A stretch of 64,000 bases of DNA from Verrucomicrobiota bacterium (GTDB lineage Bacteria; Verrucomicrobiota; Verrucomicrobiia; Limisphaerales; Palsa-1400): positions 166,429 through 230,428 of the forward strand of contig JBEKYR010000004.1 of assembly GCA_049510745.1 (NCBI GenBank), given 5' to 3'. The notes under the pieces were generated by a model that made no database searches, had not been told where the DNA came from, and saw only the letters and a program-made list of their open reading frames with translations. Below, piece by piece: positions 12,934 through 29,024 of this stretch. Every line of letters starts with the position of its first letter. The stretch's first letter is position 1. A program made the position numbers and the translations under genes.

Positions 12934-13898
12934 ACCAAACCGTCATCAGTTTGTCCATGAACCTTGCGCCCACGCCGACCTTTCCACCTGAAATGAGAAT
13001 CGAACCTTTTCTCCCGTCGTCTCGCCGGAGCGCGCAGCGCGGCGCTTCCCAACTGCCGTCTTGTCCAACGGCCGCCCTCTGCTGTTCCGTTCTGGCTGCG
13101 ATGGTTTTGACCGGATGCAGCCCAGCGACCGAGCCTTCACCAACCGCGGCCAGTTCCGTCGTGAAGACCAAGTGTGGCAGTGACATGGTCGCCATTCCCG
13201 CGGGCCAATTCACGATGGGGTCCAAAGAGGGGCCGATTGACGTGAAGCCGGAACACGTGGTCAGAATTGACGCGTTTCTCATGGATCAGCGGGAGATCAC
13301 GCAGGCAGCTTATGAAGCGGTCACAGGCAGCAACCCCTCGCGGCGCAAAAATCCCAAGAACCCAGTCGAGCAAGTCACCTGGTCCGCCGCGGCGCGATTC
13401 TGCAATGCCCGGTCGCTGCAAGAGGGCCTGACGCCCTGCTATGACACGAACACCTGGGAGTGCGATTTTTCAGCCACTGGATACCGGCTGCCCACCGAAG
13501 CGGAATGGGAGTACGCGTGCCGCGCGGGCAGCACCACTCAATATTACTATGGCGATAATCCGGAGGAACTGAAATCCCATGCATGGTTCGAGGGCAACTC
13601 CGAAGGTCATCCGCATCCGGTTGCCCAGCGCAAGCCCAACGCCTGGAACCTCTTCGACATGGCCGGAAACGTGTGGGAATGGTGCAACGATTATTACGGC
13701 GCCAAGTACTATCGCCAAAGCCCCGCAGACAATCCCCATGGGCCGAAGGAAGGCGAAAAGCGCGTGCTCAGAGGCGGAGCCTGGTCCGCCAGCTCCGCCA
13801 ATTGCACTTCCTGGGTGCGGAACTGTGACGAGGCTGGTTTGACCGACATCTGCCTGACCGGGGATTCCAACGGCTTCCGGTGCGTGCGCAAGAAGTGA
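12930..13898 (+). CDS. Formylglycine-generating-enzyme (SUMF1) fold protein, probable lipoprotein; start uncertain
   Basis: LTGC lipobox; IPAGQFTMGS, YRLPTEAEWEYACRAG, DMAGNVWEWC, RVLRGG, GFRCVR. Confidence 0.85.
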   Translation: MNQTVISLSMNLAPTPTFPPEMRIEPFLPSSRRSAQRGASQLPSCPTAALCCSVLAAMVLTGCSPATEPSPTAASSVVKTKCGSDMVAIPAGQFTMGSKEGPIDVKPEHVVRIDAFLMDQREITQAAYEAVTGSNPSRRKNPKNPVEQVTWSAAARFCNARSLQEGLTPCYDTNTWECDFSATGYRLPTEAEWEYACRAGSTTQYYYGDNPEELKSHAWFEGNSEGHPHPVAQRKPNAWNLFDMAGNVWEWCNDYYGAKYYRQSPADNPHGPKEGEKRVLRGGAWSASSANCTSWVRNCDEAGLTDICLTGDSNGFRCVRKK

Positions 13899-13906
13899 GC
13901 TTGGGA

Positions 13907-14173
13907 TCGCTCGCCAGTGCGGTGACGTTTGGCGGGTGGTTTGGCGGCCGTATAGGCGCTTGCATGAATCGGCGGGTCATGGCCCAGAACATCGATAGAT
14001 TTGTTGCGCCTTTCCGAGAGCGCGACAACGGTTCCTGGGAAAGCGAATACTGGGGCAAATGGTTCACCTCCGCAGCCTTCGGTTATCTTTATCAGCCCTC
14101 GGCGGAACACAAGGCCAAGATTGACCAGGCCGTGCGCGCCCTGCTTCAGACCCAGAGCCCGGACGGACAGATC
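13907..14173 (+). pseudogene. Internal fragment of a GH127-like beta-L-arabinofuranosidase gene
   Basis: RRVMAQNIDRFVAPF...WESEYWGKWFTSA...IDQAVRALLQTQSPDG resembles the GH127 N-terminal region; truncated on both sides. Confidence 0.6.
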
Positions 14174-14840
14174 ACACCCGGTGATCCTCGCGGATGATTG
14201 TGCGGCAGCCGCCGGCCTGGCTGGAACGCCAGTTCTTGGGCGGTTTCGTCTTCTTGAGTTGGTCCAATTGACCGATTTCCTTGAGACGCAGGTAGATGAG
14301 TTGCCAGGCACAAGGGCGGGCCGGGTCCACTTCGCAGTGGTCTTCACGGGAGCCGCTGCACGGGCCATTGAGCATGCGTTTGGCACAGCGGGTGACCGGG
14401 CAAATGCCGCCGTAGAGGTGGAGCACACAGGCGCCACACGCGCCACATTTTTCCGCCCAGACTCCGCGTTCCTCGAGGATGCCGATGAATGCGGTGTCCA
14501 AGCCGGCATAGACCGGTTTGCCGCTGTAACGCTCGGCCAGGGCCTGCACGCCGGCGCCGCAACCCAGGGACAAGACGGCGTCGTGGTTCTTGATGGCCTC
14601 GGCCGCTTGCTCGAGGAAGACGTTGTCGCACTGGCGTTCGATGGTGGCTTCATCGACTTCGAGGGGGAGGCCTTTGAGTTTTGCCGCCATGCGCAACGCG
14701 GAGGCGATGATGCTGACTTCGCGTTGTCCGCCGGCCAGGCAGACGGTGACGCAGGTGCCACAACCGAGCAAGAGCAGCTTTCGGTGTTTTTCCACTATGG
14801 CCAGCAGGTCAGGGATGTTCTTTCTTTGTGCAACGATCAT
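14172..14840 (-). CDS. metV: MetV-type small subunit of methylene-THF reductase (MTHFR C-terminal Cys-rich domain)
   Basis: MIVAQRK start overlapping the mvhD stop (ATGA); GCGTCVTVC, ERQC, CGACGAC, CPVTRCAKRMLNGPCSG, CEVD..PCAW. Confidence 0.88.
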   Translation of the reverse strand: MIVAQRKNIPDLLAIVEKHRKLLLLGCGTCVTVCLAGGQREVSIIASALRMAAKLKGLPLEVDEATIERQCDNVFLEQAAEAIKNHDAVLSLGCGAGVQALAERYSGKPVYAGLDTAFIGILEERGVWAEKCGACGACVLHLYGGICPVTRCAKRMLNGPCSGSREDHCEVDPARPCAWQLIYLRLKEIGQLDQLKKTKPPKNWRSSQAGGCRTIIREDHRV

Positions 14841-15283
14841 GAGCAGTTCTCCGGTTTGGGCGAACCATCGGGTTTGATGGGGTTCGGGCCCAGTTTGCGA
14901 ATGGTTTGGACCATGTCGGTAATCGTATCCGCCAGGGGCCGGGCCATGGCGGCGGAAATGTTGACCATGCGGATGCGGTCCTTTTCGAGGCCGATTTCCA
15001 GCAGCAGGTCCCGGGTATAATTGACCCGGCGTTTGGCGCAAAGATTACCTTCGACAAAATGGCAGCCGCCTTCCAGGCAGCCGGCGACCAGCACGCCGTC
15101 CGCGCCGTGTTCCAATGCCTTCATGAAATACTCCGTTTCCAGCCGGCCGGTGCAGGGAGTGCGGATGATGCGCACATTGGGCGGGTACTGGATGCGCATC
15201 GAGCCGGCCAGGTCAGCGGAGGAATAGGCGCAGTAGTGGCAGCAAAAGGCCACAATCTTGGGTTGAAAGGCTTCGGCTTGCAT
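14837..15283 (-). CDS. mvhD: MvhD/FlpD [2Fe-2S] adaptor subunit
   Basis: AFCCHYCAYSSADLAG, RTPCTGR, GADGVLVAGCLEGGCHFVEGN. Confidence 0.93.
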   Translation of the reverse strand: MQAEAFQPKIVAFCCHYCAYSSADLAGSMRIQYPPNVRIIRTPCTGRLETEYFMKALEHGADGVLVAGCLEGGCHFVEGNLCAKRRVNYTRDLLLEIGLEKDRIRMVNISAAMARPLADTITDMVQTIRKLGPNPIKPDGSPKPENCS

Positions 15284-15286
15284 GGC

Positions 15287-18200
15287 TCAGACGGTTTCCA
15301 CCAACTCCCTTTCCGGGTGGGCGGCAGTCAAAAGTTCGCCGTTCCGCTCCGGGAACAATTGCCGGATCATGACCAGGAACTGGTCGGTTTCAAAGTGATG
15401 CAGTTGGATGGCGCGGGCGGGACACTCGGCGGCGCAGATGCCGCAGCCCATGCACTTGGCGGCCTCGATCTGGCCCTTGCCGTCCTTGTTGCAGAACGGC
15501 GCGGAATACGGGCAGACGGTGACGCAGGTCATGCAGGAGATGCATTTCTGCTGGCTGACATAACAGACCTGGGCGCTGACGTCGAGTTGCGTTTTGGAAA
15601 GGACGGTGGCGGCGCGGGCGGCGGCGGCGCGCGCCTGGGAAATGTTCTCGTCGATGAACTTGGGCGAATGGGCCAGCCCGCAAAGGAAGACGCCTTCGGT
15701 GGCGAAATCCACCGGCCGCAGCTTCATGTGGGCTTCCACATAAAATCCGTCGGCGTTCAGCGGCACCTTGAGCATGTCGGAAATGCGCTTGTTGTTCTTC
15801 AGGTCGCTTTCAATGCCGGTGCTGAGGACAACATTGTCAGCTTCGACCTGGAGCGGTTCGGGGAAGTCGGGGCTTTTCAGGCTGACGACCAGGCCCTGAG
15901 TATCGCGCACCTCGGGCGGCGCTTCAGGCGTATAGCGGATAAAGACGACACCGGCCCGGCGGGCTTGCTGGTAGTAGAGTTCACGGAAGCCGTAAGTCCT
16001 GACGTCGCGGTAGAGGACGAAGACGTTGGCGGCGGGATCTTGTTTCTTGATGGCCAATGCATTCTTGATGGCCATCGAGCAGCAAATACGGCTGCAGAAA
16101 GGATGCTGCTCGTTGCGCGAGCCGACACACTGGATCATGACGATATTTTGTCCCTTCGCGGGATAGGCTTTGTCGTGCAACAGTTTTTCCAGCTCAACCT
16201 GCGTCAAGACGCCTGCGGAGCGGCCATACAAGAACTCGGAGGTCCTGGCTTGGCGCGCGCCGGTGGCGACGATGATGGCGCCACCGGACACTTCGAGTGG
16301 CTGGCCGCCCTTGACCAGCGACAGATGGAATTTGCCGACGTGGCCTTTGATGGCGGAGATTTCTGTTTCCAGATACAGCTTGATGTGGGGATGCTTCTCG
16401 ACTTGCCGGATAAGGGCGTTGGTAAACTGAGCGAGGTCCGCGTGCTCGAAGGTGCTGTGAATCTCGTGCAGGGTCCCTCCCAGACGATTCGTCTGTTCCA
16501 CCAGATGCACCGGAAATCCCTGATTCGCCAGCGCCAGGGCCGCGGTCATGCCACTCAAGCCGCCGCCGATGACCAAGCCCGTCTGGTCAACCTGCAGCGT
16601 CCCGCCTTCCAGCGGCGAGAGCATCCGCGCCCGGGCGATGGCCATGTTGACCAGTTCAACCGCCTTTTCCGTGGCGGATTGCGGCGCCGCGGAATGCACC
16701 CAGGAGCACTGGTCGCGGATGTTGGCCATCTCGAACAAATGGGGATTCAACCCCGCTTCGCGCAAGGTTTCACGGAACAAAGGCTCGTGCGTTCGCGGGG
16801 TGCAGGAGGCCACCACGATACGATTGAGCCGATGCTCGCGGATCGCATCCTTGATGTTCGACAAGCTCGTATCGGAACAGGTGAACATGGTATGAGTCGC
16901 CAACACGACGCCCGGCTGGTTCGCGACGCTTTTCGCGACTCGCTCGACATCTACGACGGAGCCGATGTTCATGCCGCAGTGGCAGACAAAGACCCCCACT
17001 CGCGCTGCTTCATCGGCGACATCATGCTCGGTGGGGTAACTCTTTTTGGTGATCAGCGTATTGCGCGCGGGCGCCAGCAATTCCATTGCCATGGACGCCG
17101 CGGCGCTGGCTTGGGTCACCGTTTCGGGAATGTCCTTGGGCTCCTGGAAGGCGCCGCCGACGAAGACGCCCGGCCGGGAGGTCGATAAGGGGGCCAGGCG
17201 GTCGGTGTGGCAGAAGCCAAAGTCGTTCAGCTTGATGTCGAGGCTGGCCGCGCACTTGGCCATGGACTTCGGCGGTTCCATGCCGACGGACAGAACGATC
17301 AGGTCAAAATCCTGCTGTTGAAGCTGGCTGTTGCCATCCAGAAATTGAACGCGCAGGTCTTTGCTGCCGGGGACCTGAACAATCCGCGAGGGAATGCTTT
17401 TGACGTAGTGGATGTTTTTCTGCGCCCTGGCGCGCTCATAGTACTGGTCAAAATCCTTGCCGTAGGCGCGGATATCCATGTAGAAGATGGTCGCGTCCAG
17501 GCCTTCGACGTGATCGCCCGCCACCATGGCCTGTTTGGTCGCCATCATGCAGCAGATGGACGAGCAATAGTCATTGCCACAAGCCGAATCCCGCGAACCG
17601 ACGCATTGGATCCAGGCGATGCGCTGGGCTTTGCGGCCATCGGACAGCCGGATGACATGCCCTTCAAACGGCCCCGCGGCCGAGAGCATGCGCTCGAATT
17701 GAACACTGGTAACGACGTTGGGATGGCGGCCATAACCGAATTCGCCTTTTCGTTTGGCATCGAATTCACCAAAGCCCGGGGTCAGGATGACAGCGCCCAC
17801 CTCGAGCGTAACGGTCCGCTCCTTCATCGCGTGGTCGATGGCGTGCTGTTGGCAAGTCTCGACGCACCGATTGCACTCCGAGCACAGGGCGCAGTTAAGA
17901 CAACGCTCCGCCTCCGCCAACGCTTGCTCCTCGGTCAGCCCTTTTTCGACTTCGTCGAAATTCCCCAGCCGATTGGCTGGCGGCAGTTCGGCGGCGTGGG
18001 GCCGGTCCTTCTTCGCGACTTTCCCGGCATCGGGCAGCAGCTCCTCCGGCATGGGGTTGACCGTGCTCTCAAAACGGGCAGCCAGCAGGTCCTTGCCGGT
18101 CAAATAGCGTTCGATGGATTCGGCGACCCGTTTGCCGGCCGCGACCGCATCGATCACCGACGCGGGACCCGAGGCATTGTCGCCGCCGGCGAAAACGCCG

Positions 18201-19783
18201 GGGATGGAGGTTTGCCCGGTGACGGGGTCGGCTTTGAAGCAGCCTCTTTCGCTATCAACCGGGATATGCCCGAGCAACTGCTCATCCACCATCTGGCCGA
18301 TGGCCACAATGATTTGGTCGGCTTCCAGAGTGGCCAGGTCGTTTTCGTCAAAGGCGGGACTAAACCGTTTCCGATCGTCGAAGACCCGGAGGCACCGTTT
18401 GATCTCGAGGCCGGTCACGGAACCATTCCCCGTGATGCGCTTGGGGCCCCAGCCGTCGCGGATCGTAATGTTTTCGGCCAGCGTGGCCTCGATTTCTTCC
18501 TTGTAGGCGGGCATTTCATCGCGCCGTTCCAGGCAAACCATCTCGACCTTCCTGGCGCCGAGGCGCAGGGCGGTCCGGGCGACATCCACCGCCACATTGC
18601 CGCCGCCAATCACCAGGACCCGGTCTTTCACCACCGGCTTCCGGGCCGAAGCCGCGTCCCGGAGGAATTCGACACCATGAAACACGCCGTTGATTTGTTC
18701 GCCTTCGATGCGGAGCTTGCGGCTTTTCTGGGCGCCGGCGGAAAGGAATATGGCCTGATAATCCTGCCGGAGCGATTGGAAGGTGATGTTCTCGCCGATG
18801 CGGCAGTTATAGACGAACTTGACGCCCTTGCGGCGGATCAGTTCGACTTCATGGTCCAAAATGTCCTTCGGCAGCCGGTACTCAGGAATCCCCCAGCGGA
18901 GCATGCCGCCGGCGGCGCCGAGCGCTTCAAACACGGTGACGGCAAAACCGGCATCGGCAAGGTCAGCCGCCGCGGTCAATCCGGCCGGGCCGCCGCCAAT
19001 CACAGCGACCTTTTTGGCGTCCGGCGCGGGAGATTTTTCTTCCGGCAAAGCTAGTTTCCCCGCCGCCAGCATTTCGATTTCCTGGTCGGACGCGAACCGT
19101 TTCAACAACCGGATGGCGATGGGATCATCGGCCTTGCCGCGGGTGCAAACGGATTCGCAGGGATGGGTGCAAATCCGGCCGCAGATCGCGGAGAGGGGAT
19201 TTCGCTGGCGAACAAGGTTGACTGCCTTGAGGTATTCCTTCTTCTTGATGAGCTGAACGTAGCCTTGGACGTTGACCCTGGCCGGGCACTTCACCTTGCA
19301 GGGCGCGTGGCCGTGTTTGAGGATGCCAAAGATGTTGGGCGTGGCCTGAGCGTAGAGCTTGGCGATTCCCTTGCGCGTGCCGAGGCAGCGGTTGAACTCG
19401 TCCGGTATATCGACGGGGCACGCTTGGGTGCATTCGCTGCAGCCGGTGCATTTATCCTCGTCAACAAATCGCGGAAACCGCCGGACGGTGGCTTGAAAAT
19501 GCCCCGGATCACCCTTCAGGCCGGTCAATTCCGAGAGTGTCAGGATCTCGACGTTGAGATTCCGCGCGCATTCCACCAGTTTGGGCGAGACAATGCAGGT
19601 CGCGCAATCGCCCGTCGGGAAAGTCTTGTCCAGGTGGGCCATCATGCCGCCGATGGCGGCGTCGCGCTCGACGAGATAGACCTTGAAGCCGCTGTTGGCC
19701 AGGTCCAGCGAGGCCTGCACGCCGGCGATGCCGCCGCCCTGCACCAGCACCGCGCCAATCTTCTTGTCGTCGGATTTGCTCAT
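15287..19783 (-). CDS. hdrA: Giant HdrA-like flavoprotein (HdrL type): two HdrA modules, an inserted GltD-like NAD(P)H module and ferredoxin domains
   Basis: GGGIAG and LDKTFPTGDCATC; insert with APC..CP, ICGRICTHPCE, GGGPAG, GGGNVA; two IQCVGSR/CS.ICC motifs; VFVCHCG; CxxCxxCxxxCP ferredoxins. Confidence 0.92.
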   Translation of the reverse strand: MSKSDDKKIGAVLVQGGGIAGVQASLDLANSGFKVYLVERDAAIGGMMAHLDKTFPTGDCATCIVSPKLVECARNLNVEILTLSELTGLKGDPGHFQATVRRFPRFVDEDKCTGCSECTQACPVDIPDEFNRCLGTRKGIAKLYAQATPNIFGILKHGHAPCKVKCPARVNVQGYVQLIKKKEYLKAVNLVRQRNPLSAICGRICTHPCESVCTRGKADDPIAIRLLKRFASDQEIEMLAAGKLALPEEKSPAPDAKKVAVIGGGPAGLTAAADLADAGFAVTVFEALGAAGGMLRWGIPEYRLPKDILDHEVELIRRKGVKFVYNCRIGENITFQSLRQDYQAIFLSAGAQKSRKLRIEGEQINGVFHGVEFLRDAASARKPVVKDRVLVIGGGNVAVDVARTALRLGARKVEMVCLERRDEMPAYKEEIEATLAENITIRDGWGPKRITGNGSVTGLEIKRCLRVFDDRKRFSPAFDENDLATLEADQIIVAIGQMVDEQLLGHIPVDSERGCFKADPVTGQTSIPGVFAGGDNASGPASVIDAVAAGKRVAESIERYLTGKDLLAARFESTVNPMPEELLPDAGKVAKKDRPHAAELPPANRLGNFDEVEKGLTEEQALAEAERCLNCALCSECNRCVETCQQHAIDHAMKERTVTLEVGAVILTPGFGEFDAKRKGEFGYGRHPNVVTSVQFERMLSAAGPFEGHVIRLSDGRKAQRIAWIQCVGSRDSACGNDYCSSICCMMATKQAMVAGDHVEGLDATIFYMDIRAYGKDFDQYYERARAQKNIHYVKSIPSRIVQVPGSKDLRVQFLDGNSQLQQQDFDLIVLSVGMEPPKSMAKCAASLDIKLNDFGFCHTDRLAPLSTSRPGVFVGGAFQEPKDIPETVTQASAAASMAMELLAPARNTLITKKSYPTEHDVADEAARVGVFVCHCGMNIGSVVDVERVAKSVANQPGVVLATHTMFTCSDTSLSNIKDAIREHRLNRIVVASCTPRTHEPLFRETLREAGLNPHLFEMANIRDQCSWVHSAAPQSATEKAVELVNMAIARARMLSPLEGGTLQVDQTGLVIGGGLSGMTAALALANQGFPVHLVEQTNRLGGTLHEIHSTFEHADLAQFTNALIRQVEKHPHIKLYLETEISAIKGHVGKFHLSLVKGGQPLEVSGGAIIVATGARQARTSEFLYGRSAGVLTQVELEKLLHDKAYPAKGQNIVMIQCVGSRNEQHPFCSRICCSMAIKNALAIKKQDPAANVFVLYRDVRTYGFRELYYQQARRAGVVFIRYTPEAPPEVRDTQGLVVSLKSPDFPEPLQVEADNVVLSTGIESDLKNNKRISDMLKVPLNADGFYVEAHMKLRPVDFATEGVFLCGLAHSPKFIDENISQARAAAARAATVLSKTQLDVSAQVCYVSQQKCISCMTCVTVCPYSAPFCNKDGKGQIEAAKCMGCGICAAECPARAIQLHHFETDQFLVMIRQLFPERNGELLTAAHPERELVETV

Positions 19784-19784
19784 A

Positions 19785-20654
19785 TCAGTTTGCCGCTGCC
19801 TTCTCCAAAACCGTTGAAGCGGGAACCATCAGCTTCTCGAACCCGAGCTCCTCGGGCGCCAGCCCCAGACCAAGCCCAACCAGTTGGGTGATGTACACGA
19901 TGGGCAAGTGATAGTTCTTACCGGTCTGTTTGTTGATATCCTGTTGGCGCAAATCCAGGTTGACCTGGCACATCGGGCAACTGACCGCGATGCAGTCGGC
20001 GCCCGCCTGGCAGGCCATGTCGAGAATCGAATCCGTGAGCTGGACCACCACATCCGTTCGTGAAAGCGACAACCCGCCGCCGCAACATTCGACCTTGCAC
20101 GGCCAGTCCAGGCTTTGGCCGCCCATCGCTTTTACCAGGCGGTCCAGCGAGGTCGGATTTTCCGGGTCGTCGAATTTCAAAATCCTGGGTGGCCGGACCA
20201 GCAGGCACCCGTAGTAACAAGCCACCTTGAGGTTCTTGAGCGGCTTCTTAATGGCGCGGGAGATGGCCTTCAGGCCCACGTCGTCCAGGAGCACTTCGAG
20301 GAAATGCCGCACGTGAACCGAGCCGTCGTAATCGCGCTCCAGCGCCTGGCTGACCTGCTCGCGCATGCCGCGATGGGCGGTGATTTCGTGGTTGGCCACT
20401 TTCATGCGGCTGAAGCAGGCGGCGCAACTGACTACCATGTCCAGTTTGAGGTCCTGGACTTTGGCCAGATTGGCAGCGGGGAGCGAGACAGCCAGGAAGG
20501 GATCGGTCTGGTGGCCGGCGGTCGCGCCACAACAGGTCCAGCCTTCGGGTTCAACCAGTTCAATGCCCAGCGCGCGCGCCACCGCCAAGGTGGATTGGTA
20601 CATGTCCCGGGCGGTGGATTCAGCCGAGCACCCTGGAAAATACGCGTACCTCAT
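19785..20654 (-). CDS. hdrB: Heterodisulfide reductase subunit B
   Basis: Two CCG domains: YFPGC, WTCCG, CAAC, YYGC, ECCG, CPMC. Confidence 0.93.
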   Translation of the reverse strand: MRYAYFPGCSAESTARDMYQSTLAVARALGIELVEPEGWTCCGATAGHQTDPFLAVSLPAANLAKVQDLKLDMVVSCAACFSRMKVANHEITAHRGMREQVSQALERDYDGSVHVRHFLEVLLDDVGLKAISRAIKKPLKNLKVACYYGCLLVRPPRILKFDDPENPTSLDRLVKAMGGQSLDWPCKVECCGGGLSLSRTDVVVQLTDSILDMACQAGADCIAVSCPMCQVNLDLRQQDINKQTGKNYHLPIVYITQLVGLGLGLAPEELGFEKLMVPASTVLEKAAAN

Positions 20655-21217
20655 GCTTGGGGTCCTTTATTCTGTCTGGAGCGCTTGAAGATGCGACCCA
20701 CGGTTTTCCGGTCGCCACCCCGGGAAGGCAGCAAAGAAATCTTCCGTTTCTTGAGCATGGCTGGAAACTTCTCCACATCGTTCCTCCATTTCCCCGTGCC
20801 CAGTTTGTAGGCGACGACCATCCCCATCTCATAGCTGCGGCCAAACATTTCGACCGTCTTCAGAAAAGCCCGGTTAAACAGCGGCACATTGCCGGCTGGC
20901 CTGGATGCGCCGCGTTGAAGGGCCAGCAGGCGCAAGGCGTCAATGACCGCGGCGACATCAATCCCCATCGGACAGCGCGCCGAACAGATCTCGCACGAGG
21001 CGCAGGTCCAGATGAGATCGCTCTCCAAGAGCTCATTGCCGGCGCCCAGATGCAGTTGGCGCATCAGTTCCGACGGCCGCGACTTGGTCAGCTTGGCCAC
21101 CGAACAACCACTGGAGCATTTCTTGCACTGGAAGCAGACGCTCAGATCGACGCCGCAGATTTGTTCCACCGCGTCTTTCAAGCCGGATCCGGTTTTCTTT
21201 TTGATGATGGTCATCAC
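20651..21217 (-). CDS. hdrC: Heterodisulfide reductase subunit C
   Basis: CFQCKKCSSGC and WTCASCEICSARCP; overlaps the hdrB start. Confidence 0.92.
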   Translation of the reverse strand: MMTIIKKKTGSGLKDAVEQICGVDLSVCFQCKKCSSGCSVAKLTKSRPSELMRQLHLGAGNELLESDLIWTCASCEICSARCPMGIDVAAVIDALRLLALQRGASRPAGNVPLFNRAFLKTVEMFGRSYEMGMVVAYKLGTGKWRNDVEKFPAMLKKRKISLLPSRGGDRKTVGRIFKRSRQNKGPQA

Positions 21218-21231
21218 GGGAGGTTCTCCGG

Positions 21232-23862
21232 TTACTTGGCGGCCACCTCTTCGAGGCCCGCTTCGGCATCGTCGGTATTCTGCTCAACCAGGGCAGTCAC
21301 GCTGGCGGGAACGACCTTGCGATACACGGCGGCGGGTTCGCGCCTCCGTCCGTTTTCGGTCAAGAGGTGCTCGATGGTGATTCCGAACAGCCGCTGATTC
21401 TCCTCGAGCAGCGGCAGGATCAATTCCCAGTCGGCATTGGTCAATCGGGCAAACTTGCCGCCGTTTAACTGCTGCTCGACCAACGTTCGGTTCGGATCGC
21501 GGACGAAAATGGCGCCGCCGGAAGCCAGGGAGAATAGATTGCTGCCGGGATAAGGCTCCGGCAGCGGAACCAATTGGCCGTCGTCATCGAACTTGACGCC
21601 ATTCAAGATCACGAACCCGCCGCCGTTATGAGGGTCGCCCGCCATGAAAGACTCTGCCAGGTAATCCAGGCACGTGCCATTGATGATGACTTTGGGCCGG
21701 CCGACGGAGTTGATGAGCGGACGGCCGGCGGCGTTGCCGAGCACATAGACAGAGCCGCCTTTGGCGCCATACATAAAGGTTTGGCCCACGTCGCCGTGAA
21801 TGACCAGCTTGCCTTCCTTGATAATCTGGCCCAACTGGTCCTGCGCGTTTCCATGCACCGTAATCGTCAGCCCATCGATGCCGGAGGCCAAGTAGTCTCC
21901 ACTGCTGCCATACACATCGATGGTCACCTCCTCCGTATTAGGCCCCAGCCCGCACCCGAGAAATCGCTGGCCGATACAATTGAAGCTGATGAAGTGCCGC
22001 CACCCCATCATGTAGGCCTCCACGAGCAGGGCCGCGTCACAATGGTCGCCTTCCGGTGGAAAATGCGCGGTGTCGATCACCAGCGTGGTTTCGTTCTCCT
22101 GCGGTTTGCGCAGGTGCTGGCGGGACTCGAAATCGATGAGGCGAAATGCGCTCTTGCCGGCGTCTCTTGAGCCGATGTTGGGAAGATGGCTGAACAACTG
22201 GTTCCACTCGTTATGAATAATGTGGAGCAGATGGCTGCGCTTTTTGGCGCCGGTTGAGTAAATCCGGTCGTTGAGCAGGGTGAAAACCTCAATCGCAGTG
22301 GCGGTTTTGGACGGATCTTTCGCCTGCTGCGTGATCTGACGGCACGCCAGGCGAAACTCATCAAAGGTCCATTGCGGCAGACGCCCGCGCATCGTCTCAA
22401 AAATCTCCACGCTGTCGAGCTTGTCGAAGGACGCTGGCGCTCCCGGCGGCGGCAATTCCCGCGAAAAATCGCACGATTCCGTTCCTCTGGGCATGGGGAC
22501 CGGTTTGCCGAATTTGTCGGTGCATGTGATCCGCATCTTGCCGGCGGCATCCTTTTGCAAATTGAAAATAAAGGCCCCGCCATCGTTGTGACTGCCGCCG
22601 CGCGCGTTCCAGTACCGGTCCGCCACCGGGCAAATCCGTTCGTCGTCCTTCGACAAGCTTAACAGCGTGGCATCGATCGCTTGTTTTTCCGAACAAATCA
22701 GGCCCACCTGCACCTTGCCGTCGCAGAAAGCAAACACCTGCGGCCGAAGCATGGCGGTGTCGGTGATGCCCATCAACTGGAACTGCTTTTCCCGGGCGAG
22801 CGTGCGGGCGATGATGAAGAACCAGGGACCATCGGGCGACCCGTGCATATGCGTGGCCTGGATCGCCCGGTAGATCTTTCTTTTCTCCGGATCGAGACGG
22901 TCAAAGTCCAGTTCCGTCGTGGGCGCCAGCGCCTCGATGATATATTCCAGCGGATAGTGGTAGGTCCGGCTCAGCAAATCGAAGAGCAGGGCCGAGACTT
23001 CCGTGTCGGTGAGGAACTGGGGATAGATCTGACGCTGCTTGAGGTACTCGCTGACGGAATGGTAATTGGCAAAGTCGCCGTTATGCACCAGGGCCATGTC
23101 AATGGCCGCAAACGGATGGGCGCCGCCCGGGTGCCAGACACGGCCCTTGGTCGGGAAACGTTGGTGGGCAATCCATTCGTACGCGCACAGGTCCTCAATC
23201 TGGTAGTACTTGACGATCGCTTCGGCGAACCCGACGACCTTGAGGATCATGATGTCCCGCCCATGCGAGAGCACGAAGGCCCGTTTCTCCCCGAGCGACG
23301 CGTAGTATTTCTGATTCAGGCTGAAGCTGTTCTGGTTGACAAACTCGGCTTCCGCTTCCTCGCGGCCCAGCGCCTGCAGATGGTTGCGGGCGATGAACGC
23401 GTCCAACACCTTCGGTTTTGCGCGCACAAAATAGCGGCTGACCGCCGGTGGCATCACCTCCAGCCCCGGCACGGACTTCCAGTCTTGGAGCTGGTCGAGT
23501 TGGCCGGTCGCGGCGATGTCGAAGTGCGGGGTGATGAACTGCGCCTCGATTTCGGGCCGCACCTTGGGGTCGATGAACGCCAGGTGCAGCAGGTAATGGC
23601 TATCAAGGACTTCGCGGCTGACCCCAAGCTGCTCGGGGACCAACCCCACCGCGGCGATGCCGCCTCCCTTTCCATTGCCCCGGTTGTGCATCTGGCGGGA
23701 CGGTTCATAGATATGCTTGCCCGGCACAGGCTCGCTGCAACAGAAACCCACGACCCCGCAGCCCCCTTCCTCGGCTTCCTTCTTCAGGCTCGAGGCGTGG
23801 TTGAGAGACTGGGCCAGCCGTCTTCTGGAATCGGTCAGGCGCTTTATCAATTGACCGTTCAT
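21232..23862 (-). CDS. Class II glutamine amidotransferase + GXGXG domain protein (split glutamate synthase-like subunit)
   Basis: EGGCGVVG Ntn Cys, HNRGNGKGGG, AHQRFPT, HPF, HNGDFAN, TDTE, DGPW; C-terminal GXGXG beta-helix; ATGA overlap with the upstream gene. Confidence 0.85.
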   Translation of the reverse strand: MNGQLIKRLTDSRRRLAQSLNHASSLKKEAEEGGCGVVGFCCSEPVPGKHIYEPSRQMHNRGNGKGGGIAAVGLVPEQLGVSREVLDSHYLLHLAFIDPKVRPEIEAQFITPHFDIAATGQLDQLQDWKSVPGLEVMPPAVSRYFVRAKPKVLDAFIARNHLQALGREEAEAEFVNQNSFSLNQKYYASLGEKRAFVLSHGRDIMILKVVGFAEAIVKYYQIEDLCAYEWIAHQRFPTKGRVWHPGGAHPFAAIDMALVHNGDFANYHSVSEYLKQRQIYPQFLTDTEVSALLFDLLSRTYHYPLEYIIEALAPTTELDFDRLDPEKRKIYRAIQATHMHGSPDGPWFFIIARTLAREKQFQLMGITDTAMLRPQVFAFCDGKVQVGLICSEKQAIDATLLSLSKDDERICPVADRYWNARGGSHNDGGAFIFNLQKDAAGKMRITCTDKFGKPVPMPRGTESCDFSRELPPPGAPASFDKLDSVEIFETMRGRLPQWTFDEFRLACRQITQQAKDPSKTATAIEVFTLLNDRIYSTGAKKRSHLLHIIHNEWNQLFSHLPNIGSRDAGKSAFRLIDFESRQHLRKPQENETTLVIDTAHFPPEGDHCDAALLVEAYMMGWRHFISFNCIGQRFLGCGLGPNTEEVTIDVYGSSGDYLASGIDGLTITVHGNAQDQLGQIIKEGKLVIHGDVGQTFMYGAKGGSVYVLGNAAGRPLINSVGRPKVIINGTCLDYLAESFMAGDPHNGGGFVILNGVKFDDDGQLVPLPEPYPGSNLFSLASGGAIFVRDPNRTLVEQQLNGGKFARLTNADWELILPLLEENQRLFGITIEHLLTENGRRREPAAVYRKVVPASVTALVEQNTDDAEAGLEEVAAK

Positions 23863-25427
23863 GAGGTTTTCGCCGCGTCGTTGGTGTAATCCAGGTGCAT
23901 CATCAGGTCGGTGCGTCCGCGCAACTCGCTCACGCTGCGCAGGCCGAGGCGTTGCAGAATCGAGACGAGCACGTTGCGCCAGGCGCTGTAAAGGTTGACC
24001 AGCCGCTGCGTGCCCCAATCGATCTGCATCTTCTCGGAAAGCTCGGGGTCGGTCGTGGCAATGCCGCGCGGACAACCGCGTCCGCTCTCACATCGGCCGC
24101 ACCGCACACAACCCAGCGCCACCAATTCCGCCGTGCCGATGACCGCTCCATCGGCGCCCAGGGCGATGGCCTTGGCCACATCGTAGGCCGAGCGAATGCC
24201 GCCGCTGGCAATCAGGACCACCTTGTCCCGGACCCCTTCATCGGCCAGAAAACGGTGGACCTTGCCAATGGCGTATTCGATGGGCATGGCGATGTTCTTC
24301 TTGGCGATGTCCGGCGCCGCGCCGGTCCCGCCGTAGCCGCCGTCAATGTGGACGATGTGAGTGCCCGCGGAGTAACTGCCCACCGCGACCATATCCACGT
24401 CCGTCGGGGTGGAGACCTTCGTCGAGATCAAGGCGCGCCGGTTCACGTGCTTGACCCAGTCGATGTGCTTCATGTGGTCTTCGATGGAATAGACGCTGTG
24501 GAAGGGGAACGGGGAAAAGAGCGAGAAACCCACCACCGCCTCCCGCATCCGGGCCACACTGAGCGTCACCTTGTCGCCCAACAGGTGCCCGCCCAATCCT
24601 GGCTTGGCGCCCTGGGCGTACTTGAACTCCACAATCGGCACACGCTGGATGGTCTCTTCGCGCACGCCGAACAGGCCCGTCGCCACCTGCGTAATGACAT
24701 GGTCGTCATAGGGCCGCATCCGCTCCATGTAGCCGCCTTCGCCCGTGCAGGTGAAGGTATTGAACGCGACCGCCGCCCGCGCTTTGGACAACTGGGTGAC
24801 ATTGCTCACTGACCCGAAGGACATGCCGCCGCCATACCAAGGCACATCAATCGTGAGCTTGGGCCGGCCATCGTCGCGCTTATTGAGCAGGAGGCGGGTG
24901 TCGATTTGCTCCGGGCGCAGGGCTACAGGCGGTCGAGCGGGGAATTTGAAGCGGAGCCGGTCGAACCCTCCGCCGGAACGGCCGCACTCATAATCGTAGT
25001 CGTAGTCTGCCGGCGGCACGTCGCCGGTTTCCGCCATCCTCCAGGTCGCCAGGATCAGATCGCTCGACCAGCGACTATCGCCCAGGGCCTGGCACATCGG
25101 ATTCTCCCGCACCTGCAGCGCTCCCTGGGGGCAAAGCGACACGCAATAGCGCCCGGTCTTCTCACAGGCCGGTCCGATGCACAAGTGATGGAGCGGCTCG
25201 CCGAAGTATTTGTAGCCGGGGTTGCGCACGTGGACCTGGAAGGAACAAACCTCCGCGCACTTCCCGCAACGCCGGCAATCCTGGCTGCGATGGACAATGT
25301 ACTTGGCGATCTCATTGCGGTAGCGCGACGGCGCCGGGCGGGTCACTCGCTCGACTCGTTCCTGCGGTACGCGGGTCTTGAGCGTGTTCTCGGGCAGCAA
25401 GTCTTCAATGCTTCTTTCTGGTGCCAT
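23859..25427 (-). CDS. Glutamate synthase FMN-binding subunit with N-terminal ferredoxin
   Basis: GMSFGS, TGEGG, QVATGLFGV, KYAQGAKPGLGGHL, DGGYGGTGAAP, ASGGIRS, CVRCGRCESGRGCP. Confidence 0.9.
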   Translation of the reverse strand: MAPERSIEDLLPENTLKTRVPQERVERVTRPAPSRYRNEIAKYIVHRSQDCRRCGKCAEVCSFQVHVRNPGYKYFGEPLHHLCIGPACEKTGRYCVSLCPQGALQVRENPMCQALGDSRWSSDLILATWRMAETGDVPPADYDYDYECGRSGGGFDRLRFKFPARPPVALRPEQIDTRLLLNKRDDGRPKLTIDVPWYGGGMSFGSVSNVTQLSKARAAVAFNTFTCTGEGGYMERMRPYDDHVITQVATGLFGVREETIQRVPIVEFKYAQGAKPGLGGHLLGDKVTLSVARMREAVVGFSLFSPFPFHSVYSIEDHMKHIDWVKHVNRRALISTKVSTPTDVDMVAVGSYSAGTHIVHIDGGYGGTGAAPDIAKKNIAMPIEYAIGKVHRFLADEGVRDKVVLIASGGIRSAYDVAKAIALGADGAVIGTAELVALGCVRCGRCESGRGCPRGIATTDPELSEKMQIDWGTQRLVNLYSAWRNVLVSILQRLGLRSVSELRGRTDLMMHLDYTNDAAKTS

Positions 25428-26802
25428 AAAGCTTTCCGAACGTTTCCTCCTCAAGTTGCTCGAAGAACATGGCGCGGCCGACATCGCCGCGCAGCCGGCG
25501 CGCCTCGCGCATGCCCATGGCCCCCATCACCTCGATCAACTGGTCGTGCCAGGCGGCGATGAGATTCGTCATGCGGCCCACGGCGAAATCGCGATCGACG
25601 GTCTCGAGCTTGGCCGGACACGGCTGGCCCGGTTTGCAACTCTCGCACAGATGACATTCCAGCGCAATGAGCAACGGCAGATTAATGGTCACCAGGTCCG
25701 CGCCGCATATAATGGCTTTGGCCAGGTGTTCCGGCAGCCCGATGCCGCCCCCGGCGATGAGGGTGATCTCGTCCCGGATCCCTTTCTCGATGAGGGCGGT
25801 ATGGATCTGGCGGAGCATGTCCTTCACAAAGCGCGGCGATGGCGCGCCGATTTCGTTGCCGTTGGCGTCCGCCACGACATGAATCGCCTCGACCTCCGGC
25901 AACTCGGCCAGCTCGATGGCGCGTTCGAGGCCCGTAGCGGTCAACTCGACCCGGATCGCGGCGACGATCTGGGGGTGGATCTTCTTGATCGCCTTGATGC
26001 GTTCGATCACCGCGGGGCTGTCCGCGATCTCCACCAGCCGGGTCTTTCGCAGCACCTCGGCCGGCACCGGGGGACTGTCCGGACCCAGATAAAACGCGAT
26101 ATGACGCAGGTGCTGCTCGGTGGCCGGCTGGTGCCGGGCATCCAGGATCGCGATCAAGTCGGTCGCCGCGGCGGTCTGTTCGATCACGGCATCGAGCTGC
26201 GGCAAAGTATGCGCCGGCGAACTCAGATCGAGGATCAGCGGCATCGGGATCGACACCAGGGGAGGCAACTCGGTCGTGACGCGCCTGCCGTCCAGGGCCA
26301 GGAATGGAGGCTTGCGCCCGATATCAACGGCCGTGCTGATGTATTCCCGGCCATGAATCCCGTCGCGCGTCGGACGAACGATTTCGGACATGTCCGTCCA
26401 CATCGAGTCGAAACCCGGGCCGGAAAACGCTCCCCGGTAGCCTGCGCCCGAGACCGGGATCTTCGCGGTTTCGGCCTGGAGCCAGGTGGTTTTGATGAGG
26501 TCCGGTTTCCAGTAGCTGTTCCCGAGGCCTTCATAAACGGGATTGAGGGACAGGCACAGGAGGCCTTTGGTGCAATCCTGCACGCACGAGAAACAGCCCA
26601 TGCACTCGAAGAACAGCGCCTCGACCGCGCTCAGGTTGCGAATATACTCCGCCTCCTGCCGGTAGCGGTCATAGACGCAGGCCTTCTTGACGCAGTTATG
26701 GCACCGGGCGCAGTCCTCCCGCCAGTCCACCACGCCATGTTTGCCGATGCGCGGGCCTCGCGGCGGCACCGGCCGTGTCTTGATGTGATATTTTTCCGGC
26801 AT
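25405..26802 (-). CDS. Degenerate paralog of the glutamate synthase FMN subunit with Fe-S motifs
   Basis: CARCHNC and CMGCFSCVQDC; AETAKIPVSGAGY; IAGGGIG; CHLCESCKPGQPCP; lacks GMSFGS and QGAKPG. Confidence 0.8.
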   Translation of the reverse strand: MPEKYHIKTRPVPPRGPRIGKHGVVDWREDCARCHNCVKKACVYDRYRQEAEYIRNLSAVEALFFECMGCFSCVQDCTKGLLCLSLNPVYEGLGNSYWKPDLIKTTWLQAETAKIPVSGAGYRGAFSGPGFDSMWTDMSEIVRPTRDGIHGREYISTAVDIGRKPPFLALDGRRVTTELPPLVSIPMPLILDLSSPAHTLPQLDAVIEQTAAATDLIAILDARHQPATEQHLRHIAFYLGPDSPPVPAEVLRKTRLVEIADSPAVIERIKAIKKIHPQIVAAIRVELTATGLERAIELAELPEVEAIHVVADANGNEIGAPSPRFVKDMLRQIHTALIEKGIRDEITLIAGGGIGLPEHLAKAIICGADLVTINLPLLIALECHLCESCKPGQPCPAKLETVDRDFAVGRMTNLIAAWHDQLIEVMGAMGMREARRLRGDVGRAMFFEQLEEETFGKLYGTRKKH

Positions 26803-26814
26803 GCGTTCTTCCGG

Positions 26815-27717
26815 TCACGACAGCCCGGCGGCGGCAAGCAACTCCGGCACCACGGCTTCTTTGCCACCCGAGAGAATATGAATTCCGCGCACACCTTCCA
26901 TCGTCTTCAGTTTCTTGATGGTCTCCACACACATCGCCCGGCCGATCTTCCCGGCGCCGTTGCCGGCGGCGGGGAGCTTTTTCGTCACTTCGTCGGGCAC
27001 GTAAAAATCGGGATGGGTCTCGCGCAGCTTCTGGGCCTCCGCTGCGCTTTCCAGGGGGAACACGCCGGCCAGAATCGCGGCCTTCTTGGTGAACCCCGCC
27101 TGGCGAACGGCCTCCAGCCATTGGCTGAACGCGTCGAGGTCGAAGACCGCATGGGTTTGAATGAACCGGGCGCCCGCCTCGATTTTGCTGTAGAGCCTGA
27201 GCAGGTTGAGTTCGAGCGGCTTCAGGAAGGGGTTGGCCACCGCTCCCACCAGCATCGAGAACGGCCCGTCAATCTTCGTCCCGTCGGCCAGCAGGCCCTG
27301 CTCGCACATCCGGGTGGTTGTCTCGACAAACTGCGTGGAATCGATGTCGAAAACGTTGGTGGCTTCCGCACAGCCGATGAGCGTCTGGTGATAGCCGGAC
27401 AAACAAAGCACATTCTTGATCCCGAGGCTGGCGGCTCCCAGCAAATCCGACTGGAGGGCGATGCGGTTCCGGTCACGGGTGACCATTTGAAGGACCGGCT
27501 CGAGGCCCATTTTGAGCGCGACGACCGAGGCGGCCAGGGAGGACATCGCCACCCCGTGCTGGTTGTCGCCCATGTTGACCGCTGTGAGCTTGCCGCCCAA
27601 GGATTTCAAGGCCGCTTCCGTGGCGGATTGAGTCGCCGTGGTCCGCGGCGCGTGCTCGGCGGTGAGGATGAACTCTCCGTTGTCGATTTTTCCGGCGAGT
27701 TGGCTGTCCACTTTCAT
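26815..27717 (-). CDS. metF: MetF-like flavoprotein (methylene-THF reductase family) with a variant active site
   Basis: FILTAE, EPVLQMVTRDRNRIALQSDLLGA, SKIEAGARFIQT, GIHI. Confidence 0.85.
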   Translation of the reverse strand: MKVDSQLAGKIDNGEFILTAEHAPRTTATQSATEAALKSLGGKLTAVNMGDNQHGVAMSSLAASVVALKMGLEPVLQMVTRDRNRIALQSDLLGAASLGIKNVLCLSGYHQTLIGCAEATNVFDIDSTQFVETTTRMCEQGLLADGTKIDGPFSMLVGAVANPFLKPLELNLLRLYSKIEAGARFIQTHAVFDLDAFSQWLEAVRQAGFTKKAAILAGVFPLESAAEAQKLRETHPDFYVPDEVTKKLPAAGNGAGKIGRAMCVETIKKLKTMEGVRGIHILSGGKEAVVPELLAAAGLS

Positions 27718-28517
27718 GCCACCATGCGTTCCGGTGTGTTCATCGCACCGCCGGGGGTGAGATCCGGCGGCAGTCTTCTGACCTGTTCGATGAACTGCTT
27801 GATTTCGTTACAGGCCTGCTGGGCGCCTCCTGCCGCGCACTCAATGACGGCCATCCGTCCCGCCCCGAATCCGATTTCCTCGAGCAACGATTCGACTGCC
27901 TGGGCGCGCCTATGGGCGCGCAGGCTGCCCTCGAAGTGACGGCACTCCTTCGTCTTGCAAGCCACAATTACCACGCCGTCCATGCCCGTTTCCAGGGCTT
28001 TAACCAGGTAGGGCACATCCACCTTTCCAGAGCAGGGCAGACCGATGGTCTTGACCGTGTCTCCGCCCAGATCTCCCCAGGAACCGGCCACCCGGCCCGC
28101 GTCCAAATTGTTCGAGCAGTAAAAGACGCAAGTCTTTAGGCGGCGCTTGTCTCCCCTGGCGGAGAGGGCTGGGGAGAGCTGGCCGCCCGGTTCCACATTC
28201 GGATTCCGCAACCGGTTCACGCACCGCTGGAGGACCGACACATCCTGCCGACACGCGGCCAATTCCTCAGCGCCCATGAGCCCGTCTTTGGCCATTTGGC
28301 AATGCAGCGCCTCGACGAGGGCGATGACTTCGCGCAGCGCGGCTGATTCGTCATCCACAGCGGAGCAGGCCTCCTCTAAACCCCCGCAGGCCAAATCCAT
28401 TCTTATGATCTCGTCCCACACCGCATCCAAGGTTGCGTGCAAGGCGAAGAGCAAACGCGGACAACTCGCTTCGATAGCCCTCAAGTGCTCATCGACAGTC
28501 GGGTCAAGCTTGCTCAT
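27714..28517 (-). CDS. MvhD-like [2Fe-2S] domain protein with ~125-aa helical N-terminal extension
   Basis: FYC, LPCSGKVD, GMDGVVIVACKTKECRHFEGS; overlaps the metF start. Confidence 0.8.
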   Translation of the reverse strand: MSKLDPTVDEHLRAIEASCPRLLFALHATLDAVWDEIIRMDLACGGLEEACSAVDDESAALREVIALVEALHCQMAKDGLMGAEELAACRQDVSVLQRCVNRLRNPNVEPGGQLSPALSARGDKRRLKTCVFYCSNNLDAGRVAGSWGDLGGDTVKTIGLPCSGKVDVPYLVKALETGMDGVVIVACKTKECRHFEGSLRAHRRAQAVESLLEEIGFGAGRMAVIECAAGGAQQACNEIKQFIEQVRRLPPDLTPGGAMNTPERMVA

Positions 28518-28599: not shown

Positions 28600-28662
28600 G
28601 GAAAAACGTCCGAGCCCTGCAAACATGAAAGAACGCCCGGAAACATTGTTGGCCCTGCTCTT

Positions 28663-28702
28663 TATCAGTTGGTCGTGGGTTCAACTCCCCGCCGGGGCAC
28701 CA
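28663..28702 (+). mobile_element. Displaced tRNA 3' half (probably tRNA-Lys-like); attR-like island boundary
   Basis: TATCAGTTGGTCGTGGGTTCAACTCCCCGCCGGGGCACCA has a T-loop, acceptor 3' strand and CCA end, but no D-arm or 5' acceptor strand upstream. Confidence 0.7.
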
Positions 28703-28825
28703 TCTCATCAACCACTTGCGAAAGCTCCCGGTGTTACTGACCCGCCGAGTAGTATCAGATTCTGTTGAGGACGATATTCGGGGCGAAACGATGAAAGATT
28801 GACGCGAACTTCATGGAAAGATGAA

Positions 28826-28861
28826 TGTCGGTTTAGTTAACATTTGTCGGTTTAGTTAACA
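28826..28861. repeat. Perfect 17-bp direct repeat x2
   Basis: TGTCGGTTTAGTTAACA at 28826 and 28845. Confidence 0.9.
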
Positions 28862-29024
28862 CCTTTGGCGGGCTGGACTGGGGCGGATGGCGGCAAGGTT
28901 TGAATTGGATCATGTTTTATTTCAGCCACTTACATTGGTTCTGTCCAATTTCTGGTCACCTTGGCTCGAATCTAGCTGGAAGAAAGCAGCGATGCGCGAA
29001 ACAGATTGAGTCAACGAATTTGTT

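Follow-up and report, generated by a model that had tools for sequence, protein, structure and literature searches.

A ten-gene cluster of a Verrucomicrobiota bacterium joining a putative split glutamate synthase to Hdr-type and MetVF-like electron-transfer genes

Closest described systems

Glutamate synthase is thought to take its electrons from NAD(P)H by way of GltD, or from ferredoxin (PMC8097209). Here we describe a ten-gene operon of a Verrucomicrobiota bacterium, at positions 14172..28517 of the window (the whole stretch of 64,000 nucleotides that was analysed, from contig JBEKYR010000004.1 of assembly GCA_049510745.1), in which three genes of glutamate-synthase type, the core, lie among genes for HdrABC, two MvhD adaptors, MetV and a MetF-like protein, here called MetF-prime. 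We regard this cluster as a real, widely conserved and uncharacterised variant of glutamate synthase.

The NADPH-dependent glutamate synthase GltBD of A. brasilense (PDB 1ea0, 2vdc and 6s6s) has the same leader-Cys glutaminase, flavin mononucleotide (FMN) barrel loop, GXGXG domain and GltD-like module (PMC8097209), but here three chains stand for one, with extra ferredoxin domains, the GltD module lies within HdrA, and the inactive barrel stands apart as a paralogue of recent origin. The closest relatives of the glutamine amidotransferase (GATase) and FMN subunits are those of the archaeal-type split glutamate synthase (Monoglobus NZ_OY725739, locus L087), which also has an N-terminal ferredoxin domain. 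In the present locus, however, GATase and GXGXG domains share one chain, the FMN subunit occurs twice, one of the copies being dead, and the donors in this family are MvhD/MetVF/Hdr or GlcD-like proteins rather than a small Fe-S protein and a flavin adenine dinucleotide (FAD) oxidoreductase. The same set of GATase, GXGXG and FMN domains occurs in the N-methylglutamate synthase MgsABC, represented by a Ponticoccus plasmid locus (NZ_CP047169, L086) whose neighbours, glnT and sox genes, suggest the Mgs label; its sequences are more distant, its loop motif is different and its MgsC has no Fe-S clusters, and the gmaS/mgd context is lacking here.

On the electron-transfer side, the HdrCBA-MvhD-MetVF complex of Moorella thermoacetica and Sporomusa ovata, a methylene-tetrahydrofolate (methylene-THF) reductase (MTHFR), contains all six gene types, including a double HdrA of 1.5 thousand residues with both Glu/Lys pairs, and shares the order hdrC-hdrB-hdrA-mvhD-metV with our locus (PMC9430772). 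The differences are a second MvhD, the three glt genes, a MetF without the folate-anchoring Asp, and the lack of acetyl-CoA synthase (ACS) in this genome. HdrL, or type III HdrA, of Desulfobacterium autotrophicum, Syntrophobacter fumaroxidans and ANME-1 is an HdrA whose GltD insert binds NAD(P)H and whose gene lies beside mvhD (PMC2702500, PMC5947623, PMC12054007); none of the HdrL passages in these papers links it to GltB-type subunits, and 'glutamate synthase' there denotes the GltD-like insert alone. We found no description of the ten-gene cluster in the literature, where a mention in subscription papers or preprint supplements is possible. Table S7 of PMC13101534 gives mvhD, hdrA, hdrB, hdrC and 'glutamate synthase' of strain ORM2a as a predicted subcluster among syntrophy genes.

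The operon and its probable glutamate-synthase core

Open reading frame (ORF) and profile searches recovered all ten genes on the minus strand, in the span and order that a preliminary description of this DNA had given: mvhD2, metF-prime, inactive FMN-subunit paralogue, FMN subunit, GATase, hdrC, hdrB, hdrA, mvhD1 and metV. With inferred start positions for the FMN subunit (25427), GATase (23862), hdrC (21214) and metV (14840), the successive gaps from mvhD2 to metV are -4, +12, -23, -4, +17, -4, +1, +3 and -4 nt. Gaps of this size, four of them 4-nt stop/start overlaps, fit one translationally coupled operon, and the earlier statement that the genes overlap or lie within about 15 nt of each other holds for every junction but that of 17 nt.

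The GATase subunit (876 residues, 21232..23862; PF13522) is a class II glutamine amidotransferase fused to a GXGXG β-helix (PF01493, E 4e-15). As in canonical GltB, its Cys35 stands behind a leader of 34 residues, and the class II site is complete (the nucleophile Cys35, the glutamine-binding R235 and D286, and the oxyanion pair N261-G262), with motifs at least 95% conserved in 64 homologues. The catalytic FMN, or synthase, subunit (522 residues, 23859..25427; PF01645, E 2e-90) has an N-terminal ferredoxin domain and aligns to residues 852-1170 of A. brasilense GltB (2vdc; E 3e-51). Its residues K275, R295 and E316 are the equivalents of K937, R957 and E978 in the 2-oxoglutarate loop of that enzyme, residues that serve in substrate binding and glutaminase activation, and its Fe-S Cys motif from residue 440 likewise aligns with 2vdc. 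Judged by sequence, both the glutaminase site of the GATase subunit and the synthase site of the FMN subunit are intact.

The third core gene (25405..26802; PF01645, E 3e-13) encodes a 465-residue protein with an N-terminal 2x[4Fe-4S] domain, paralogous to the FMN subunit over its full length (hhalign probability 100 over 410 columns). The 44-residue substrate loop is deleted and the FMN-site motifs are gone, while twelve cysteines are invariant and the C-terminal 4-Cys motif is retained; the same kind of evidence marks it as a catalytically dead copy of the FMN subunit with its Fe-S clusters kept. An alignment-based model of this paralogue has a barrel fold at a middling predicted local distance difference test (pLDDT) score of 63, the fold from the single sequence reaching 37, and the Foldseek matches listed for the model, such as IMPDH and flavocytochrome b2, are all TIM barrels of a generic kind and include no GltB chain. 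Descent from the GltB central domain was rejected, the hhalign probability being 5.9% for that domain and 96.7% for the FMN domain, but the paralogue may fill a structural role like that of the central domain, and its Fe-S clusters would suit an electron-entry port.

Compared with one reference locus of each type (L087 and L086), the FMN subunit matches the archaeal-type glutamate synthase at E 7e-79 over 477 residues and MgsC at 1e-26 over 345, and the GATase subunit matches the archaeal-type enzyme at 1e-30 over 406 residues and MgsA at 1e-10 over 96. The SIED loop motif of glutamate synthases is present in the FMN subunit; MgsC differs there. Canonical GltBD pairs a single GltB of about 1500 residues with a free GltD; here the genes are split, the GltD module is part of HdrA, and the best score against the GltB model NF008730 is 201 bits, below its cut-off of 1047. 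The core thus resembles glutamate synthase by every sequence test run except one, on the tunnel motif discussed below, and the cluster is neither GltBD nor MgsABC, nor a Moorella-type MTHFR with a complete site. We conclude that the core is probably a glutamate synthase.

Conservation of the arrangement was followed in 74 loci fetched with the GATase-GXGXG protein as query; because only the best 80 of 221 related stretches were kept, this set is biased to close relatives. All ten genes occur in the same order in 38 loci (36 as scored, L046 and L051 differing by labelling alone), a further 26 follow the order as far as the end of the contig or flank allows (one of them, L004, with an insertion before hdrA), and nine are permuted or start at the GATase gene. 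Five permuted loci read GATase-hdrC-hdrB-hdrA-mvhD-metV-mvhD2-metF-paralogue, where the metV/metF neighbourhood is again Moorella-like. By their record titles, the loci come from at least six phyla: Verrucomicrobiota, Planctomycetota, Bacteroidota/Ignavibacteria, Desulfobacterota, Spirochaetota and Latescibacterota. The paralogue, used as a marker, is present in 3 of 401 genomes of Verrucomicrobiota and in 95 of 351 sampled genomes of Desulfobacterota (the phylum of genome G402). Two earlier expectations, co-conservation of the glt-like and hdr/met genes and related clusters in Desulfobacterota, are both borne out. The ACS beta subunit is encoded by 19 of 52 carriers and missing from the other 33; the cluster therefore does not need the Wood-Ljungdahl pathway. 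In genomes G402, G486 and G773 the cluster supplies the sole strong PF01645 match.

The Desulfobacterota relatives show which part of the cluster is constant. Among the 95 positives, 20-kb regions were fetched for 40, which lie on long contigs and sample the whole range of scores. In 39 of these loci the core genes follow one another directly, and the fortieth is cut. Seven loci (L108, L110-L113, L116 and L117) have both FMN-type genes joined into one, for a single protein of about 1000 residues made of paralogue and FMN subunit. The partners vary. MvhD, MetV and MetF without HdrA in the region accompany 22 cores, MvhD and MetV without a detected MetF two, MvhD alone five, and two MvhD copies with MetVF a further five, four of them with HdrA, so that MvhD stands with the core in 34 loci. 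The remaining six (L122-L127) all have a GlcD-like FAD/Fe-S gene directly upstream of the core, and a glutamate synthase driven by a 2-hydroxyacid is possible there. Such swapped donor modules point to a plug-in design. What is invariant is the three-gene core, with the Hdr-Met part as one of several interchangeable donor modules. Beside three clusters lies a further weakly scoring Glu_synthase-family gene of about 530-550 residues (L044:3492-5081, L055:20551-22194 and L090:14403-15992).

Nitrogen genes adjoin the core in 18 of the 40 loci (glnA in 13, within two ORFs; glnD in one; nrpR in four), a count that rests on 91 of 147 flanking ORFs scanned. Of 60 core-positive genomes, 11 (12 if one second cluster-like copy is included) have a further strong FMN domain of the glutamate-synthase type, as do 34 of 60 core-negative genomes of the same phylum, a complementary distribution with a Fisher p of 3e-5; this value is overstated, since related genomes do not count as independent cases. 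Often no other glutamate synthase is recognisable in a genome that has the core. Among the 74 loci of the ten-gene type, canonical gltB is adjacent in six, and nrpR occurs in L026, an ammonium transporter gene in L057, and glnA and glnE near L083.

The Hdr-Met module and its altered MetF

HdrA (1498 residues, 15287..19783; assigned by profiles and alignment) is of the double, Moorella type, with two thioredoxin-reductase-like domains and, as in Moorella, a GltD-like insert (Fer4_20 at 158-238, Pyr_redox_2 at 257-550). The window had been said to hold no free gltD and no ACS gene; ACS beta was indeed not found anywhere in this 94% complete genome, but an equivalent of GltD is present in the cluster, inside HdrA. 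The Glu/Lys pair at the FAD that marks a bifurcating HdrA is found twice (E697/K750 and E1197/K1240), at least 90% conserved in 49 rows. An acidic residue after the second Rossmann strand is a sign of NADH preference, and E419, which holds this position in HdrA, suggests NADH as its substrate. Moorella HdrA, of the same architecture and with pairs E696/K750 and E1204/K1246, oxidises NADH (PMC9430772). Placed in the domain that reduces ferredoxin, the GltD insert may shut ferredoxin out (PMC12054007). NADH, entering by way of HdrA, is the rather likely main donor.

HdrC (20651..21214; TIGR03290, E 2e-17) carries 2x[4Fe-4S], and HdrB (19785..20654; PF02754; TIGR03288, E 6e-62) has two CCG domains, the cysteines of both being conserved in a consensus of 64 rows. 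MvhD1 (14837..15283; PF02662, E 2e-48) is the canonical [2Fe-2S] partner of HdrA, and the Fe-S subunit MetV (222 residues, 14172..14840; PF12225, E 7e-36) has Cys motifs that are conserved across the consensus of its homologues. MvhD2 (27714..28517; PF02662, E 8e-24) has its FlpD/MvhD [2Fe-2S] adaptor domain at about residues 128-260, with four Cys invariant in 57 homologues, preceded by a lineage-specific N-terminal extension of 115 residues that has no Pfam match and recurs in only six other, close loci.

We propose that MvhD2 may be the docking adaptor to the glt core. In a predicted complex with the paralogue it gave an interface score (ipSAE) of 0.47, the best control giving 0.00, with a contact agreement of at least 84% and a partner pLDDT of at least 78. 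This lends weak support: among reference pairs, 116 of the 157 solved ones and 2 of the 215 mismatched ones attain the mark, but passes at or below 0.60 comprise 18 of the 157 solved complexes and both mismatches, and the pass could reflect likeness to solved MvhD-HdrA (MvhD-ferredoxin-domain) contacts. The earlier proposal of a glutamate-synthase-type enzyme fed by an Hdr module is supported, with this one weak prediction to join the halves. The core is likely to be wired electronically to the Hdr-Met module.

MetF-prime (26815..27717; PF02219) is a methylene-THF reductase barrel of the MetVF type. In E. coli MTHFR the folate site is built from Asp120, Gln183 and Glu28; Asp120 and Gln183 hold the pterin in place, and the Asp is described as invariant and as essential for catalysis (PMC9900621). 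MetF-prime retains the Glu (Glu21), but Tyr109 replaces the Asp and His189 the Gln, and it lacks the full Glu, Asp and Gln set of the Moorella-type enzyme. By alignment counts, none of 50 ten-gene-type MetFs keeps the Asp, which is Tyr in 48 of 49, His in one and Thr in the distant L083. Both Asp and Gln are kept in all the controls (36/36 AcsD-fused MetFs, 77/77 methyltransferase-fused MetFs and the genome's own MetF) and in the 23 of 23 core-linked MetFs from Hdr-free loci with a single MvhD. By contrast, the Asp is kept in two of five MetFs from the two-MvhD loci among the 40 fetched, and in 2 of 55 wherever HdrA or a second MvhD accompanies the core.

A FastTree phylogeny using 14 of the 49 rows places the ten-gene MetFs in one clade (support 1.0). 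Since L083 and L114/L115 lie apart from it, the Asp appears to have been lost more than once. It is quite likely that MetF-prime is no longer a working folate reductase. The MetF-like flavin had been put forward as an electron partner, and with the Asp gone a relay is more probable than a second catalytic flavin site. A search for longer MetF-prime fusions turned up one, a MetF-paralogue read-through (P0121), but its end is out of frame and it probably arose in assembly. Proteins P0122-P0159 join MetF to the small subunit of the corrinoid Fe-S protein (AcsD/CdhD), some of these rows carrying names from Thermodesulfobacteria.

Proposed reaction, rival explanations and genomic setting

On balance, we favour the reading that the operon encodes an anaerobic multi-subunit glutamate synthase, in which electrons would pass from NADH to HdrA and, along a wire of MvhD and MetV, to glutamate. 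Glutamine would be hydrolysed, the ammonia channelled to 2-oxoglutarate at the FMN, and the imine reduced to give two glutamates. NADH would enter at the GltD-like insert of HdrA. From HdrA its electrons would run through MvhD1, MetV and MvhD2 into the Fe-S clusters, first those of the paralogue and then those of the FMN subunit, and so by the FMN to 2-iminoglutarate. MetF-prime would hold MetV as a scaffold or flavin relay, its folate chemistry disabled so that electrons are not drained, and HdrBC would open a side port to a thiol/disulfide carrier. In relatives that have no Hdr genes, methyl-THF would feed its electrons into this wire. Calculated from textbook potentials for all couples but methylene-THF, glutamate synthesis releases energy with either donor, at -51 kJ/mol from NADH and -28 kJ/mol from methyl-THF; a bifurcation in which 2 NADH reduce both the glutamate branch and ferredoxin is also allowed, at -16 to -32 kJ/mol. 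For methylene-THF a published -200 mV was used (PMC9430772).

True electron bifurcation by the HdrA flavins is doubtful. An unlikely rival has the same glutamate synthase with flavins that bifurcate or confurcate, imine reduction being the high-potential branch that drives the reduction of a low-potential carrier by NADH, or else with a thiol oxidised at HdrB as main donor. Both Glu/Lys signatures known from Moorella are conserved (PMC9430772), the HdrB cysteines are intact, the energetics permit it, and the other donor modules on the core use mid-potential donors; on the other side stand the possible blocking of ferredoxin by the GltD insert (PMC12054007), the Sporomusa complex of the Hdr type, for which no co-reduction of ferredoxin or NAD(P) was observed (PMC9430772), and the lack of any conserved ferredoxin or disulfide partner gene in the flanks scanned. 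Also doubtful is the broader picture of an undescribed class of glutamate synthase with swappable donors, among them some too weak for the reduction of NAD (methyl-THF by way of MetVF, a 2-hydroxyacid by way of a GlcD-like enzyme), whose ten-gene form bifurcates and lets ammonia assimilation drive a low-potential carrier. That a ferredoxin-type split glutamate synthase and a complex resembling Hdr-MetVF are merely co-transcribed is quite improbable, given genes that interleave with 4-nt overlaps in two different circular orders, the presence of an MvhD beside most cores, and a MetF that nearly always loses its Asp where HdrA or a second MvhD is present.

About as improbable for the ten-gene form is an active MetF-prime, working on folate or a new substrate as true donor or second acceptor, although a methyl-THF-driven enzyme is likely in the Hdr-free relatives, which keep all the folate residues. 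The catalytic Glu is retained in 49 of 49 and the Tyr in 48 of 49 ten-gene-type MetFs, overall conservation is strong, the genome encodes Fhs, and the energetics with methyl-THF are favourable; against it, the lost Asp is the invariant, essential pterin anchor (PMC9900621), lost on separate branches (L083, L114, L115), the Gln is lost in 26 of 49, and a canonical MetF is encoded elsewhere. Synthesis of N-methylglutamate takes no net reductant. An anaerobic N-methylglutamate synthase, or another C1-nitrogen enzyme as the preliminary description had suggested from the shared MgsABC domain set, would leave the Fe-S wiring unexplained and has only a very slight probability: the subunits are nearer to the archaeal-type glutamate synthase, the SIED loop motif is kept and MgsC lacks the Cys cluster, a GmaS query matched only the ordinary glnA locus, and no methylamine-pathway family was present among 183 flanking ORFs scanned. 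The SoxG search was uninformative, as its controls gave no match.

Several observations weigh against the NADH-driven glutamate synthase that we favour. In GltB a motif of the central domain helps to form the ammonia tunnel. The present cluster has no true central domain; the paralogue carries an altered though invariant version of the equivalent segment, and the FMN subunit a degenerate one. A near-invariant Tyr and a kept Glu in MetF-prime look like selection for a new role rather than simple decay, and the Gln persists in 23 of 49. HdrBC is kept intact although a simple NADH wire needs no role for it, and one of the 74 loci (L013) has the core and MetF-prime but lacks hdr genes in the 10 kb downstream. 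Neither a nitrogen gene nor a sigma-54 site was found flanking the present copy, and most ten-gene loci, this window included, have unrelated neighbours. Canonical GltB is encoded in 35 of 52 carriers, where, as in this genome, the cluster is redundant, and of five genomes tested for glutamate dehydrogenase, four encode it as well. None of the five ORM2a proteins has spectra in Table S7 of PMC13101534.

The genome itself has a canonical gltB with a gltD-like neighbour (C1), a canonical metF (C3) and a second hdrCBA-mvhD set (C33), and encodes glnA, glutamate dehydrogenase and Fhs. With separate canonical gltB and metF and no ACS beta, the cluster is an extra system and not part of the Wood-Ljungdahl pathway. 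Loose sigma-54 matches occur at 4 of 47 ten-gene loci, 2 of 40 others and 18 of 2000 background windows, and in a scan for promoters and terminators no signal stood clearly higher than in shuffled sequence. Metatranscriptome contigs from four of 24 runs, belonging to three studies, span about 14.1-28.4 kb, some bridging gene junctions, but they come mostly from relatives 90-99% alike and stand as contigs alone with no silent-stretch control, so they do not demonstrate transcription here or a single transcript.

Upstream of the cluster, blastn finds a 45-nt copy (42/45 identical) of the 3' half of tRNA-Lys(CTT) at 28658..28702 on the plus strand, possibly a relic attachment site; the intact tRNA-Lys(CTT) lies 70 kb away (G000:C4:124991-125067), and no tyrosine integrase was found between the two, serine recombinases not having been searched for. 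A short plus-strand ORF (13880-14197) that crosses the metV stop weakly resembles the start of a GH127 glycosidase (E 0.006) and is possibly a gene cut when the cluster arrived; the remainder was not found in the genome. At about 28822-28967, a non-coding stretch of 146 nt that includes a short tandem repeat has an 84% identical copy on another contig (G000:C25:4849-4994) and is perhaps the end of a mobile element. GC content is flat at 59-61%. Elsewhere, the second hdrCBA-mvhD set (G000:C33:44000-57016, L082) is followed by an Oxidored_q6 (hydrogenase small subunit-like) gene, and region L079 (3537-6943, G000:C4 at about 143.5-146.9 kb) has a gene with a hydrazine-synthase-alpha middle domain beside a beta-propeller/di-haem peroxidase gene, together with several FG-GAP/ASPIC genes.

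If the favoured reading is true, the core, present in more than a quarter of the sampled Desulfobacterota genomes, would give anaerobes one of their main ways to assimilate nitrogen, and one that is still unstudied. Genes such as these hdrABC-mvhD-metVF would be taken to mark acetogenesis, syntrophy or sulfur metabolism, yet they may serve nitrogen assimilation. The donor modules form a natural series that could be used to probe how MvhD, MetV and HdrA are wired, a question that also concerns the Moorella enzyme. Bifurcation, if true, would make nitrogen assimilation energy-conserving in anaerobes, by way of a rewired MTHFR with a disabled folate site.

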